Source of the DNA: Octopus sinensis
Taxonomy: Eukaryota
Length of the DNA stretch: 64,000 nucleotides
NCBI RefSeq assembly: GCF_006345805.1
Contig: NC_042999.1
Span: 146,444,001-146,508,000 of the forward strand
Reading direction: 5' to 3'
A program made the position numbers and the translations under genes. The notes under the pieces were generated by a model, which was not told the origin of the DNA, searched no databases, and saw nothing but the letters and a program-made list of their open reading frames with translations. Shown here piece after piece: positions 4,301 to 9,513 of this stretch (its first letter is position 1; every line of letters begins with the position of its first letter).

Positions 4301-6661
4301 ATTCATAACCTACCACAAACAGCTTCTGAAAGTTTGCGTTTTCTCTTAAGTGCTCAGAACAACTATTGACCTTTTACAAAACTGGGGTGATCCCTAATGG
4401 AATACTGTTTTTATATACACGAAAACACTGTAGGTTTACTCAAACATATCAAACATAAGTATGGTGGGCTAATTGAAAATTTTGATTTTTTTCAAGCTCG
4501 CAGATGTAATCTTCCCATTCTGTTATCCCAGAACTATAAGTGTCACCTCTTTACCCCCATCCCTAAGCATGCTAACTGCATATCATTTCCAACTGAACAC
4601 ACCCTGAACACATCCATCTTTCCTTACGTCATTCATTTTCGGTTTCCTTCCTCCACCAGAGTTTACAGCATCCGAAACCCCAAATCTTTCTCCTCAGAAT
4701 ATTGATGCTCTGGAATTCTCTTCCCACACACAGAGCACCTAATACACCCAGCCTTAGAGGTCCTGTAAAGGATGTTGGTACAGCCATTCCGTCTTAGCTA
4801 AAACTATTAAACCATAAATAATAAATATAAACGTGGAAATAAAAGTAATGGAAAACTGAAAACCAAAGAAAACAAACAAACAAAAAACAAACTGTAAACG
4901 AAAAAATAATTGTCTTCCAAATCTATAATCGAATTTCTTCTCTAGAGCTGGCAACCTATTTAGTTGCCTGACTTTGATAAACTACATGATTGCCTGTTGA
5001 AATATCATAGAAAAAAAAATGTTTGTTCTGCAAATTGATGGTAAATAGTTTTCTTTACAGCTATTTGCTATCGAATTACATTTGGAGAAATGAAACGATA
5101 ACAAAATACTAAAAATAATAAAAAATAAAGCCTCAAAGAAAATCAGACATGAGTCGTTGTCAATTGTAACACAATCTCTGCCGTCAAAACTATACCCTAA
5201 AGGATAACAAAATTGACTTGTTGGATAATGGAGGCATTACAGTGGATCTAAGTGATTTTACTCGAAAAGAAATTTACTCGTCGAGAATTTAGAAACGGAC
5301 AGGACAACGTAATTACATAATTGTTTTTCTCCAGTCAACCAAATTTTCCCTTTAACATTACCCGAGGTTCACTTTACAATATCTTCACGAATATTCAATC
5401 AACAATGGTTTTTGTTTACTTTAAGCATAAATATCCAATGAAAAATTCAGTTTATTTAATTATATATTAATTACTTATAGTGAATATTTATTTTTCCTCT
5501 TTTTGTGCACCTGTTAATAAATTTTGCGAAAATAGTAATTCTGCTATTTTTTTTAACAAACTTTATATATATCATTTGCTCCTGGGAAAGACAAAACATC
5601 TTTTCAAGAAAATATGATTTTTTTCAAATTTTATATTCTATTCCAGATTATGATAGAGGCTAATATTATGATTTCGGATTCCTAAAAGCGTAGAATGAGT
5701 GCGAAACCCGTTTGTCTTTGCGGTTCAGTTTGAAGTATAACCTAAATTTCTCTCAAGTGGAAAAGATATTTTATCCTAAACCATTACTGATAATGTAGGC
5801 AATATAGGTAATGTAGGCCAAAGTAAATGGTTAAATCGTTTAATGTCCATTATAAGAACTTTTGTTAAAATAAAGGAAGGTATATGCGATGTTATCAAAT
5901 TTTGTTATCCAGAGATTCATGTGGAACAAAAACATAATCGAAATGGTATACATGCAATCTCGTTGAGTAAGAGTCTTTTGACGAAGAACGAACATAACAA
6001 TCGTCTAAATGAATGTGTAGTTTTCCTAAGAAGACCACTGCTCAATAGACAGCTTGCAGTCTTTCAGCTGAAAAACCTTTCAATATCGTCTCAGCCAATA
6101 GAATTTAATCAGACGAATACAAGCGTAAATTCGAATAAACAACACAAACAATAAAAAAAAACCCCAAACAATGCAAACAAAAACAGCAGAAATGAGAATT
6201 TCTTTTTGCATGGCGTGTATAGAAGTGGAGAGGAAAAGGTCACATCTTTCAATGCATAGGTTCATCAAATTCATTTCCATTGAGGTAAGAGATTCCTTGA
6301 GGCACACTGATTTAAATAATCGGAACCATCAAGGGCTTACACAAACAAACACATATACACACAAACATAATTGTGTATATACATATGTACATGTATGTAT
6401 TAATATATATATATATACATATATATGTATATGTATATATATATGTATATATATATATATATATATATATATATATATACATATATATATATATATATAT
6501 ATGTATATTATATATATATATATATATATATATATCATCACAATCAAGGAACGGCCATTATAGGCCATTCACCCACTAGAAATAACAGCCAAAGCTTCAA
6601 CCGCAAAATAACATTAATTCCGCAAACCAGGAGAAAATTAAAAAAACATTTACCCTGTAGT

Positions 6662-6765
6662 TTCTTATACGATGCACCGTTTCAATCTATTGTTTAATGG
6701 TAAACTAACCTGATTAAATTAAATCAAGCCAATCTTCCATAGGCCGATAGATTCGTCAGTAAGAA
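6662..6765 (-). ncRNA. Type I hammerhead ribozyme in the inverted segment (1-nt insertion before GAAA)
   Basis: Reverse complement reads ttctta-CTGACGA-atctat...atagat-t-GAA-acggtgcatcgt-A-taagaa. Confidence 0.8.
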
Positions 6766-7511
6766 GCAGCCAGATCGGAACAGATATTATCACGAGGCAC
6801 TTCCATCCCTGCCTCGGCAATATCTGACCTAAAATTTTCAAATCATCGCACTCGCACCAAATTTATCGGCAGCAAATAAATATAAGCCGCCGATTCCATT
6901 ACGGAATTAACCAGAAAATTCATAATTAATCAATATAGGGTGGCAAAAAATTTTGTAGAATTTTTTTGCCACCAGCGGCCTAGTGGGAAAAAATTAAATA
7001 GTCATAGACCATTTATAAGTTCAACATCACAATCAAGGAACGGCCATAATAGGCCATTCACCCACTAGAAATTAAACAATAGATGAAACGGTGCATCGTA
7101 TAAGAAACGGTGCATCGTATAAGAAACTACAGGGTAAATGTTTTTTTAATTTTCTCCTGGTTTGCGGAATTAATGTTATTTTGCGGTTGAAGCTTTGGCT
7201 GTTATTTCTAGTGGGTGAATGGCCTATTATGGCCGTTCCTTGATTGTGATGTTGAACTTATAAATGGTCTATGACTATTTAATTTTTTCCCACTAGGCCG
7301 CTGGTGGCAAAAAAAATTCTACAAAATTTTTTGCCACACTATATTGATTAATTATGAATTTTCTGGTTAATTCCGTAATGGAATCGGCGGCTTATATTTA
7401 TTTGCGGCCGATAAATTTGGCGCGAGTGCGATGATTTGAAAATTTTAGGTCAGATATTGCCGAGGCAGGGATGGAAGTGCCTCGTGATAATATCTGTTCC
7501 GATCTGGCTGC

Positions 7512-7614
7512 TTCTTACTGACGAATCTATCGGCCTATGGAAGATTGGCTTGATCTAATTTAATCAGGTTAGTTTACCATTAAACAATAAATGAAACGGT
7601 GCATCGTATAAGAA
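7512..7614 (+). ncRNA. Type I hammerhead ribozyme, copy 1 (one mismatch in stem II)
   Basis: Stem I ttctta/taagaa; core CTGACGA 7518-7524; stem II atctat/ataaat; GAA; stem III acggtgcatcgt; predicted cleavage after GUA at 7608. Confidence 0.85.
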
Positions 7615-7999
7615 ACTACAGGGTAAATGTTTTTTTAATTTTCTCCTGGTTTGCGGAATTAATGTTATTTTGCGGTTGAAGCTTTGGCTGTTATTTCTAG
7701 TTGGTGAATGGCCTATTATGGCCGTTCCTTGATTGTGATGTTGAACTTATATATGGTCTATGACTATTTAATTTTTTCCCACTAGGCCGCTGGTGGCAAA
7801 AAAATTCTACAAAATTTTTTGCCACCCTATATTGATTAATTATGAATTTTCTGGTTAATTCCGTAATGGAATCGGCGGCTTATATTTATTTGCTGCCGAT
7901 AAATTTGGCGCGAGTGCGATGATTTGAAAATTTTAGGTCAGATATTGCCGAGGCAGGGATGCAAGTGCCTCGTGATAATATCTGTTCCGATCTGGCTGC

Positions 8000-8102
8000 T
8001 TCTTACTGACGAATCTATCGGCCTATGGAAGATTGGCTTGATTTAATTTAATCAGGTTAGTTTACCATTAAACAATAGATGAAACGGTGCATCGTATAAG
8101 AA
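8000..8102 (+). ncRNA. Type I hammerhead ribozyme, copy 2
   Basis: ttctta-CTGACGA(8006-8012)-atctat...atagat-GAA-acggtgcatcgt-A(8096)-taagaa. All core nucleotides are canonical. Confidence 0.9.
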
Positions 8103-8487
8103 ACTACAGGGTAAATGCTTTTTTAATTTTCTCCTGGTTTGCGGAATTAATGTTATTTTGCGGTTGAAGCTTTGGCTGTTATTTCTAGTGGGTGAATGGC
8201 CTATTATGGCCGTTCCTTGATTGTGATGTTGAACTTATATATGGTCTATGACTATTTAATTTTTTCCCACTAGGCCGCTGGTGGCAAAAAAATTCTACAA
8301 AATTTTTTGCCACCCTATATTGATTAATTATGAATTTTCTGGTTAATTCCGTAATGGAATCGGCGGCTTATATTTATTTGCTGCCGATAAATTTGGCGCG
8401 AGTGCGATGATTTGAAAATTTTAGGTCAGATATTGCCGAGGCAGGGATGCAAGTGCCTCGTGATAATATCTGTTCCGATCTGGCTGC

Positions 8488-8590
8488 TTCTTACTGACGA
8501 ATCTATCGGCCTATGGAAGATTGGCTTGATTTAATTTAATCAGGTTAGTTTACCATTAAACAATAGATGAAACGGTGCATCGTATAAGAA
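8488..8590 (+). ncRNA. Type I hammerhead ribozyme, copy 3
   Basis: Same as copy 2; core 8494-8500; predicted cleavage after 8584. Confidence 0.9.
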
Positions 8591-8975
8591 ACTACAGAGT
8601 AAATGTTTTTTTAATTTTCTCCTGGTTTGCGGAATTAATGTTATTTTGCGGTTGAAGCTTTGGCTGTTATTTCTAGTGGGTGAATGGCCTATTATGGCCG
8701 TTCCTTGATTGTGATGTTGAACTTATAAATGGTCTATGACTATTTAATTTTTTCCCACTAGGCCGTTGGTGGCAAAAAAATTCTACAAAATTTTTTGCCA
8801 CACTATATTGATTAATTATGAATTTTCTGGTTAATTCCGTAATGGAATCGGCGGCTTATATTTATTTGCTGCCGATAAATTTGGCGCGAGTGCGATGATT
8901 TGAAAATTTTATGTCAGATATTGCCGAGGCAGGGATGCAAGTGCCTCGTGATAATATCTGTTCCGATCTGGCTGC

Positions 8976-9078
8976 TTCTTACTGACGAATCTATCGGCCT
9001 ATGGAAGATTGGCTTGATTTAATTTAATCAGGTTAGTTTACCATTAAACAATAGATGAAACGGTGCATCGTATAAGAA
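8976..9078 (+). ncRNA. Type I hammerhead ribozyme, copy 4
   Basis: Same as copy 2; core 8982-8988; predicted cleavage after 9072. Confidence 0.9.
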
Positions 9079-9513
9079 ACTACAGGGTAAATGTTTTTTT
9101 AATTTTCTCCTGGTTTGCGGAATTAATGTTATTTTGCGGTTGAAGCTTTGGCTGTTATTTCTAGTGGGTGAATGGCCTATTATGGCCGTTCCTTGATTGT
9201 GATGGTGAACTTATAAATGGTCTATGACTATTTAATTTTTTCCCACTAGGCCGCTGGTGGCAAAAAAATTCTACAAAATATTTTGCCACCCTATATTGAT
9301 TATATATATATATATATATATATATATATATATATATATATATATATATATATATATATATATATATAATATATATATATATATATATATATATATATAT
9401 ATATATATATATATATATATATATATATATGTATATTATATATACGTACCTACATATACATATATTCATAAATGCACACAGACACACATTTACATATATA
9501 TTATATCTATATA

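Follow-up and report, generated by a model that had tools for sequence, protein, structure and literature searches.

The tandem array and its units

The window analysed here, 64,000 nucleotides of Octopus sinensis DNA (NC_042999.1, positions 146,444,001 to 146,508,000), contains a tandem repeat with a period of 488, 4.5 copies and 98% matches at 7104-9302 (TRF). Four units run head to tail in direct orientation, with lengths of 489, 488, 488 and 488 bp. The sequence-only reading had described a 488-bp tandem array at 6536..9302; the four near-identical direct units are there, but 6536-7072, inverted and on the minus strand, forms a separate arm outside the head-to-tail array. The predicted cuts after 7608, 8096, 8584 and 9072 fall exactly where that reading had put them, 488 nt apart, and three exact 488-nt monomers lie between them, whereas the first unit (7120-7608) has 489 bp. 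Unit 3 (8097..8584) is the reference unit, with position 1 as the first base past the predicted cut. The features are listed below.

6376..6535, unstranded: left (TA)n microsatellite, the insertion target (TRF, junction text)
6536..7072, minus strand: inverted arm, truncated on its 5' side, covering unit positions 85-488 followed by 1-132, with its short 3' end at 6536 (blastn, end call)
6662..6759, minus strand: type I hammerhead within the inverted arm; its core begins at 6753, the cut is predicted between 6668 and 6667, and an additional U separates stem II from GAAA (motif search and alignment; fails the strict scan)
7071..7119, plus strand: beginning of the direct arm, truncated on its 5' side (unit 459-488), and a 19-bp duplication of GAAAC-stem III-GUA, a half hammerhead without CUGANGA
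7120..7608, plus strand: unit 1, 489 bp, cut to cut
7609..8096, plus strand: unit 2, 488 bp
8097..8584, plus strand: unit 3, 488 bp, reference
8585..9072, plus strand: unit 4, 488 bp
9073..9302, plus strand: terminal partial unit, positions 1-230, with the long 3' end about 100 nt beyond the end of the other arm (a tail of the Penelope-like element, PLE, type)
7512..7614, plus strand: type I hammerhead 1, predicted cut after 7608; one stem II pair is lost to G>A at 7590
8000..8102, plus strand: type I hammerhead 2, with stem I 8000-8005/8097-8102, CUGACGA 8006-8012, extended stem II 8013-8080, GAAA 8081-8084, palindromic stem III 8084-8095 and predicted cut after 8096
8488..8590, plus strand: type I hammerhead 3, predicted cut after 8584 (strict scan)
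8976..9078, plus strand: type I hammerhead 4, predicted cut after 9072 (strict scan)
9301..9444, unstranded: right (TA)n microsatellite (TRF)

The 19-bp duplication, at 7085-7127, accounts for the orphan stem III half-site. The units contain no ORF of 60 aa or more, as had been stated: the longest ATG-started ORF in the unit, treated as looped, is 26 aa, and the longest stop-to-stop run is 47 codons on the plus strand and 60 on the minus strand. The GC content is 0.34-0.35 across 6001-10000, TA tracts counted in.

Structure and conservation of the hammerhead

The candidate ribozyme has the CUGANGA, GAAA and NUH core around three helices with stem I open, which is the type I arrangement, and its stem II is a 68-nt extended hairpin with internal loops along its length. 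The stems are as first described, but the claim of one intact hammerhead per unit holds for only part of the array. Three of the five hammerheads in the window pass the strict scan, those at 8006, 8494 and 8982, which are consecutive, while the remaining two carry one stem II lesion each (G>A at 7590 in the copy at 7518, and the extra U before GAAA in the minus-strand copy). The hammerhead models of Rfam, proposed as a check, gave no match over the window at gathering and, over 7900-8700 at E<=10, nothing beyond weak unrelated matches, probably because of the long extended stem II.

In the alignment of families A, A2 and B (nine sequences found by homology), 97% of the cells pair at the true register, compared with 32-49% in slid controls, these cells being related sequences and not independent events. 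Ten of the 15 stem pairs are altered on both sides. This count is based on nine of 16 rows, since the seven rows from families C and D were misaligned by MAFFT and were dropped. The core columns are invariant in alignment A2, under a criterion that allowed N7 and H17 to vary, and sister families retain the catalytic core alongside compensatory stem changes. Core and stems were intact at 49 of 64 stem II anchors, a sample not picked on the ribozyme, with stepwise compensatory haplotypes. The hammerhead is not a product of chance because the pairing survives ten two-sided changes across related families, and these comparisons show that the predicted fold is under selection.

The suggestion that the palindromic stem III favours cleavage as a dimer is supported by fold prediction. 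The double-hammerhead fold of two units has a predicted energy of -192.4 kcal/mol versus -192.8 for the free fold and -177.2 for two single hammerheads, and the probability of stem III in the circular monomer is 0.01-0.03. In Xenopus, eight of nine predicted retrozyme dimers did not cut in vitro. Penelope has a 5' intron similar in size to a GT...AG span at unit positions 15-92. This span is unsupported as an intron, as no joint skipping it was found in contigs of four sequencing runs.

Copies of the family and their insertion ends

A first look at the genome gave 879 candidates, and the 40 that were scored are 97-100% identical. An 18-nt motif common to the families has 11,794 exact matches, but 15 of 40 sampled loci were other repeats. 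The motif is therefore not diagnostic, and copies were counted with a diagnostic family 26-mer, which has at least 4,736 exact copies dispersed over many large contigs (0 for the reversed-sequence control). Tandem non-coding units of a few hundred bp with hammerheads, low GC and a dispersed multi-copy family are the features of a non-LTR retrozyme, and the earlier description of the element as young and multi-copy, with type I hammerheads, is supported by identity, copy number and the conserved fold.

Two inverted, 5'-truncated arms were found at 34 of 44 loci (14 of 19 in the first sample and 20 of 25 in the second), and all 34 have one short-ended and one long-ended arm. The 3' ends are fixed at about 130 nt (short) and about 232 nt (long) past the cut, both in (TA)n, so the tail, the long end minus the short, is about 100 nt. 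In the first sample 33 of 34 rows end in (TA)n and the last is an internal piece. Family B, with about 73% identity, repeats the two 3' ends. From these fixed ends the arms consist of non-coding unit up to variable 5' junctions, often across several units, and no target-site duplication is readable inside (TA)n. An inverted 5'-truncated second arm, two fixed 3' ends and a microsatellite target characterise a non-autonomous PLE, and at the level of sequence the insertions are shown to carry the PLE signature.

The sequence-only reading had overlooked this Penelope-type layout.

The 5' junctions might also hint at cleavage, but not more than that. Four of 47 lie within 3 nt of the cut (expected 0.58, P 0.003, or P 0.011 at 1.5-fold local density), in positions read by hand and with an interval picked after looking at the data. 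The first sample has 0 of 32, giving 4 of 79 when pooled (P 0.017), and in 46% of cases 47 points placed at random put four into some 6-nt interval. Near the cut site, fold-back may be promoted by the palindrome of stem III.

Proposed mobilisation and relation to known elements

The retrozyme family coexists with autonomous PLEs in the genome. Young protein-coding PLEs have hammerheads, two fixed ends and (TA)n targets, and their frames of 811 codons encode RT and GIY-YIG with a Zn-finger-like linker (Pfam RVT_1 E 1e-6, just under its cut-off; GIY-YIG E 0.029). One coding family has a tail of about 150 nt. Comparison of the unit with the ends of three PLE families, in a genome that holds more, gave no significant similarity with blastn, nhmmer or local alignment; for the best alignment 14 of 200 shuffles scored as high. 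With tblastn, no PLE coding sequence turned up at distances up to about 1.5 kb from 30 loci of families C/D, 30 motif loci and 15 non-family motif loci, and none of the examined loci of families A, B, C and D ran into such sequence.

The best reading, with a probability of roughly 0.85, is that the element belongs with the animal non-LTR retrozymes and is a non-autonomous retroelement that a PLE moves in trans. The tandem locus would be transcribed, and neighbouring hammerheads would form a double hammerhead through their palindromic stems III and cleave after GUA. This would yield multimers, 488-nt monomers and, with the single ribozyme off, probably ligase-closed circles. The RT-GIY-YIG protein of the PLE might then nick both (TA)n strands, with cDNA beginning at two internal RNA sites about 130 and 232 nt past the cut. 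The two cDNAs would end at variable points and join head to head, leaving two inverted arms, of which one has the short end and the other the long end. Uncut or re-joined cut sites would have to lie within the template, which would be either a circle or a partly cut multimer, and long arrays like that in the window were probably extended or scrambled later by local DNA duplication or conversion.

A stricter version, in which each multimer was copied directly by reverse transcriptase circling a monomeric 488-nt circle repeatedly, appears unlikely. It agrees with the fact that most arms cross at least one cut site and that both arms of a locus carry a single haplotype (one subfamily per locus; of the 77 sites that vary within a locus, only two show both alleles at other loci), and circles have been demonstrated for coral, mussel and axolotl retrozymes (PMC7229834). 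One tandem, g175, has 442-bp units in which the stem II loop is fused to the cut site, the product expected of a mis-ligated circle, but the junction shows microhomology of 3 nt; neither of its units contains the 3' half of the ribozyme, so not every unit needs an intact one. However, the window units share locus-private variants at unit sites 144, 218 and 354, where the derived allele occurs in two or three window units and in 0 of 17 other loci, and locus L033 has nine such shared sites in a higher-order pattern. Alleles shared in this way do not come from one monomer template, although assembly polishing could spread variants between neighbouring units, and the earlier derivation of the window multimer from a single circle is not upheld. 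The sharing points to local DNA duplication or conversion, or to a heterogeneous multimeric template. At g163 and L197 the arms begin no more than 3 nt from a cut and read through uncut sites further on, a pattern expected of a partly cut linear multimer, and according to passages of Frangieh et al. (PMC11167929) the main substrate of a PLE in vitro is uncut RNA. A joint from 8340 to 7853 occurs in contigs of all four sequencing runs, one of which is large and of unknown kind, so this joint does not tell circle from tandem.

The locus-private sharing indicates some expansion at the DNA level, which would also suit solo pLTR/UTR remnants of an autonomous PLE grown to minisatellites by unequal crossing-over and lacking mobility of their own, a route discussed by Li et al. 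(bioRxiv 10.64898/2026.07.22.740005). Xenopus retrozymes match PLE pLTRs in published work, and the search for a coding partner covered sampled loci only. Such an origin is nevertheless improbable for the octopus family, as both arms consist wholly of the non-coding unit, the examined loci stay clear of PLE coding sequence, and the compensatory differences between subfamilies argue for selection on the unit itself. Least probable by far is an endogenised viroid-like or satellite RNA replicating from RNA to RNA. The family resembles hammerhead viroids and viroid-like satellite RNAs in its small, structured, potentially circular RNA and its double-hammerhead logic, and the circular monomer is more stable than shuffles (z -5.2 and -4.4 by strand, 40 shuffles each). 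Unlike in the viroids, the ribozyme is found in one polarity: the antisense strand has no hammerhead core, nor was any other ribozyme of the Rfam classes sought found there. The fold is branched with 59% paired, and thousands of genome-encoded copies with PLE-type retrotransposition ends conflict with replication without a DNA phase. No exact match to a 26-mer was found in viral contigs. The label viroid-like is therefore not retained.

The preferred reading, a retrozyme moved by a PLE, places the family beside the animal non-LTR retrozymes, which it resembles in its few-hundred-bp non-coding tandem units of low GC with one type I hammerhead each, its thousands of dispersed copies and the coexisting PLEs (PMC7229834; Li, Clavereau and Pollet, bioRxiv 10.64898/2026.07.22.740005). 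The unit had been thought longer than those known in animals. Units are 220-245 bp in coral, about 350-390 bp in mussel and 330/350 bp in axolotl (PMC7229834), but published consensus lengths of animal families range from 51 to 972 bp and 488 bp is not unusual. The octopus hammerhead, which Rfam misses, differs in that stem II is extended to 68 nt and stem III is palindromic with 4 bp, and the PLE insertion anatomy is visible on most copies. This anatomy is not reported in the examined text of PMC7229834 and Li et al. ("tail" occurs 0 times in the latter). No pLTR homology was found between the family and the three autonomous PLE families compared.

Passages of Craig et al. (2021) describe a PLE layout that matches the octopus insertions, with a usual tail of 30-40 nt, and name (TA)n or other microsatellites as targets of the EN+ PLEs Neptune, Hydra and Naiad; the two RT start sites of a PLE are shown in vitro in parts of Frangieh et al. 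(2024, PMC11167929). With EN+ PLEs the family shares partial tandems, an inverted 5'-truncated second copy, extension of one end only, a microsatellite target and, upstream of the 3' ends, a type I hammerhead whose stem III is palindromic (Cervera and de la Pena 2014, PMC4209133). In contrast to them, the unit has no ORF, the tail is about 100 nt rather than 30-40 nt and the hammerhead is not of the minimal form.

No cephalopod retrozyme was found in the papers searched; Dfam, Repbase or the supplements of PMC7229834 and of the bioRxiv preprints may contain the family. Sections of the giant squid genome paper give 235 Rfam hammerhead-1 matches without analysis (PMC6962438), and those of an Octopus vulgaris repeat annotation describe active Penelope families, the word "ribozyme" being absent from its main text (PMC13282606). 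PLEs were proposed as movers of retrozymes in 2020 from coexistence (PMC7229834) and in 2026 from pLTR homology (bioRxiv 10.64898/2026.07.22.740005). Retrozymes as a class, their members in molluscs and the link to PLEs have already been published, and the octopus family is a new member. The long stem II suggests that surveys based on Rfam miss such ribozymes.

The octopus insertion ends themselves bear the two-start signature of PLEs on most copies, and with thousands of young copies one genome is enough to test which enzyme moves animal retrozymes and whether its template is a circle or a linear multimer. A wider reading, which we hold to be rather doubtful, is that five or more retrozyme families with a long stem II make up a superfamily which uses a (TA)n-targeting PLE enzyme but has no terminal sequence in common with it. 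Its genomic copies would then preserve traces of the RNA stage: 5' junctions located at the cut site would reflect germ-line cleavage, and the tandem of 442-bp units lacking the ribozyme would stem from rolling reverse transcription of a mis-ligated circle. If true, this would be direct genomic evidence for PLE mobilisation and for circular templates of animal retrozymes.

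Insertion anatomy in the window and the genome

The tandem repeat in the window has a period of 488 bp, with 4.5 copies and 98% matches. Predicted cuts lie 3' of 7608, 8096, 8584 and 9072, and the cut-to-cut units measure, in order, 489, 488, 488 and 488 bp. The insertion consists of two arms, and (TA)n adjoins the outer ends of both.

Arms of the window insertion (unit position 1 is the first base 3' of the predicted cut)
6536-7072, inverted arm: unit positions 85-488, then 1-132
7071-9302, direct arm: terminates at unit position 230

The sequence-only reading of a 488-bp hammerhead array thus stands in its period and predicted cuts, corrected for the inverted arm and the 489-bp first unit. 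It had proposed one intact hammerhead per unit, which holds for the three of five full hammerheads that passed a strict scan; of the remaining two, one is mismatched in stem II and the other carries an additional base before GAAA. Its statement that ORFs of 60 aa or more are lacking is borne out for ATG ORFs, the longest being at most 26 aa. Stem II forms an extended hairpin of 68 nt, and an Rfam search did not find the hammerhead in the array.

Elsewhere in the window, a decayed fragment right of the array (~9515-9960), with frameshifts and stops, presumably resembles the start of a mariner/Tc1 transposase, and broken reading frames at 38842-41085 and 60881-62341 are taken to resemble LINE reverse transcriptases. 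A degraded 3' fragment of a Neptune-type Penelope-like element (PLE) at 33563-34380 terminates in (TA)n. A candidate hammerhead-like motif on the minus strand (32640-32710, core at 32698) was flagged solely in a preliminary, faulty scan.

A hammerhead query of the genome gave 879 candidates, 40 of which were scored, with 97-100% identity; 4,736 copies of a family 26-mer were counted, against 0 for the control. Of the 19 first-search loci (the window among them; L045 and L046 appear to be the same insertion, present on two contigs), 14 carry a pair of inverted arms whose inner junctions vary, and each of the 14 has an arm ending at 128-145 and another ending at 219-237. Sampling 40 loci along contig C1 through an 18-nt motif gave 25 members of the window's family (A), of which 20 are two-armed, each with one short and one long end (about 130 and 232 nt past the cut); in a 21st the second arm is only 11 nt. 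Insertions of the related family B end at the two matching places. At locus L200, two insertions 3.6 kb apart (1370-2350 and 5004-7110) share identical inner junctions (433/257) and are probably a segmental duplication of a single insertion.

This anatomy of inverted arms with a short and a long end matches the PLE layout of Craig et al. (bioRxiv 10.1101/2021.04.23.441226), in which partial tandems occur with a second copy that is inverted and 5'-truncated, only one end bears a tail and the target is a microsatellite. Frangieh et al. (PMC11167929) showed that the tail is the interval between two reverse transcription start sites, and that the PLE protein extends both strands.

The genome holds a young coding PLE family with 811-codon RT and GIY-YIG frames and a Neptune-type Zn-finger linker; it carries a minimal hammerhead and has two ends, about 140 and 180 nt past its cut. 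In a second coding family, tentatively Hydra-like and with no Pfam match, the hammerhead has an extended stem II and the two ends lie at 63-78 and 217-229 nt. For both families the insertion target is (TA)n. The unit has no detectable sequence sharing with the ends of these two or of a third PLE family, so a PLE partner is inferred from insertion anatomy rather than from shared sequence. Copies of the second family (L031:5744-8450 and L103-L132) are very young; their 3' UTR is long and their tail measures about 150 nt. In a tandem Neptune-type PLE (L099:2233-10000), a 492-codon upstream frame overlaps the 811-codon RT-endonuclease frame, and the hammerhead core begins with U, not C.

Ribozyme fold and related families

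The stem III palindrome is predicted at -17.5 kcal/mol as a duplex versus -0.2 as a hairpin. For two adjacent units the dimeric form is predicted to be 0.4 kcal/mol less stable than the free fold, against 15.6 for two single forms, and the predicted stem III probability in a circular monomer is 0.01-0.03. These predictions favour the double hammerhead.

Homology searches identified a subfamily A2, with units of 488-492 bp, and a family B, whose 459-bp unit is about 73% identical to A past the cut. Across nine A, A2 and B sequences, related so that they represent a handful of events, 97% of cells are paired (slid controls 32-49%), and 10 of 15 stem pairs have two-sided changes. At 25 loci chosen by a motif lying outside the ribozyme, core and stems are intact at 49 of 64 stem II anchors, and a series of compensatory steps links the stem haplotypes. 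On this evidence, selection acts on the ribozyme fold.

Families C and D were detected by hammerhead scan rather than homology. The C unit (about 460 bp) has its post-cut region in common with A, and the D unit (about 594 bp) only the 18-nt motif, which is present in other repeats too. First-look candidates number 1,021 for B, 1,352 for C and 2,205 for D, all three being tandem, non-coding hammerhead repeats with long stem II and palindromic stem III. All 29 bins of the unit are covered by contigs from runs that carry the labels of two other organisms.

Further long-stem-II hammerheads lie 36-100 nt before (TA)n, some in inverted pairs, and are probably 3' fragments of additional PLE families.

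Example loci in the genome (G000)
L067:5330-6570, among families B-D
L139:1480-2110, among families B-D
L149:1480-2330, among families B-D
L058:1870-2075, further hammerhead
L068:7400-7530, further hammerhead
L149:1250-1390, further hammerhead
L047:5290-5400, further hammerhead
L043:3890-3990, further hammerhead
L034:6180-6290, further hammerhead

The 18-nt motif lies at 8171-8188 in the window, 75-92 nt past the cut. It also occurs in other abundant repeats (L179, L194, L196, L198, L206, L213), where no hammerhead was seen in the 330 nt upstream. A 78-nt GT...AG stretch shortly past the cut (8111-8188) resembles a short intron; both its ends are conserved in A, C and most copies of B, and no spliced joint was found in contigs of four runs.

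Circle or multimer as template

In a comparison of 79 unit pieces drawn from 18 loci, with L046 excluded, both alleles are found elsewhere at just 2 of 77 within-locus variable sites, indicating one template lineage per insertion. Most arms cross cut sites, so the templates were either circular or multimers cut at some of their sites. At window sites 144, 218 and 354 the derived allele is carried by two or three units but by none of the other loci sampled, and nine private sites of this kind at locus L033 follow a higher-order arrangement. Reverse transcription running several times round a single monomer circle, the earlier proposal, would not produce these shared variants and is not supported as stated. 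The variants could result from duplication or conversion at the locus, from a multimeric template that was heterogeneous or from assembly polishing.

Inner junctions lie within 3 nt of the cut in 4 of 47 cases in the motif sample; that they record cleavage is a mere hint because the first sample has 0 of 32. Of these four arms, two go on across later sites that are uncut, consistent with a linear multimer. In the tandem 442-bp units at L175/L176 (g175; G000:C1:4996400-4997300), the hammerhead is missing its 3' half and the cut site is fused to the stem II loop; this is consistent with mis-ligation of a circle, or with a deletion at microhomology and subsequent duplication.

Place among animal retrozymes

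On genomic criteria the element is a non-LTR retrozyme, as first proposed, and it works like a non-autonomous PLE. The element fails the tests for a viroid-like RNA; the original interpretation is partly supported. Cervera and de la Pena (PMC7229834) demonstrated circular RNAs for tandem repeats with type I hammerheads in coral, mussel and axolotl, and put forward PLEs as mobiliser of animal retrozymes. Li et al. (bioRxiv 10.64898/2026.07.22.740005) give animal family lengths of 51-972 bp, pLTR homology for Xenopus retrozymes and cutting in just one of nine dimers tested. Palindromic stem III and dimer action are described for PLE hammerheads in PMC4209133. No cephalopod retrozyme was found in the published literature searched. 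The element is an additional member of an already known class, the animal non-LTR retrozymes. Its insertion ends constitute direct, countable evidence for mobilisation by a PLE, and offer a route to testing circle against multimer templates.
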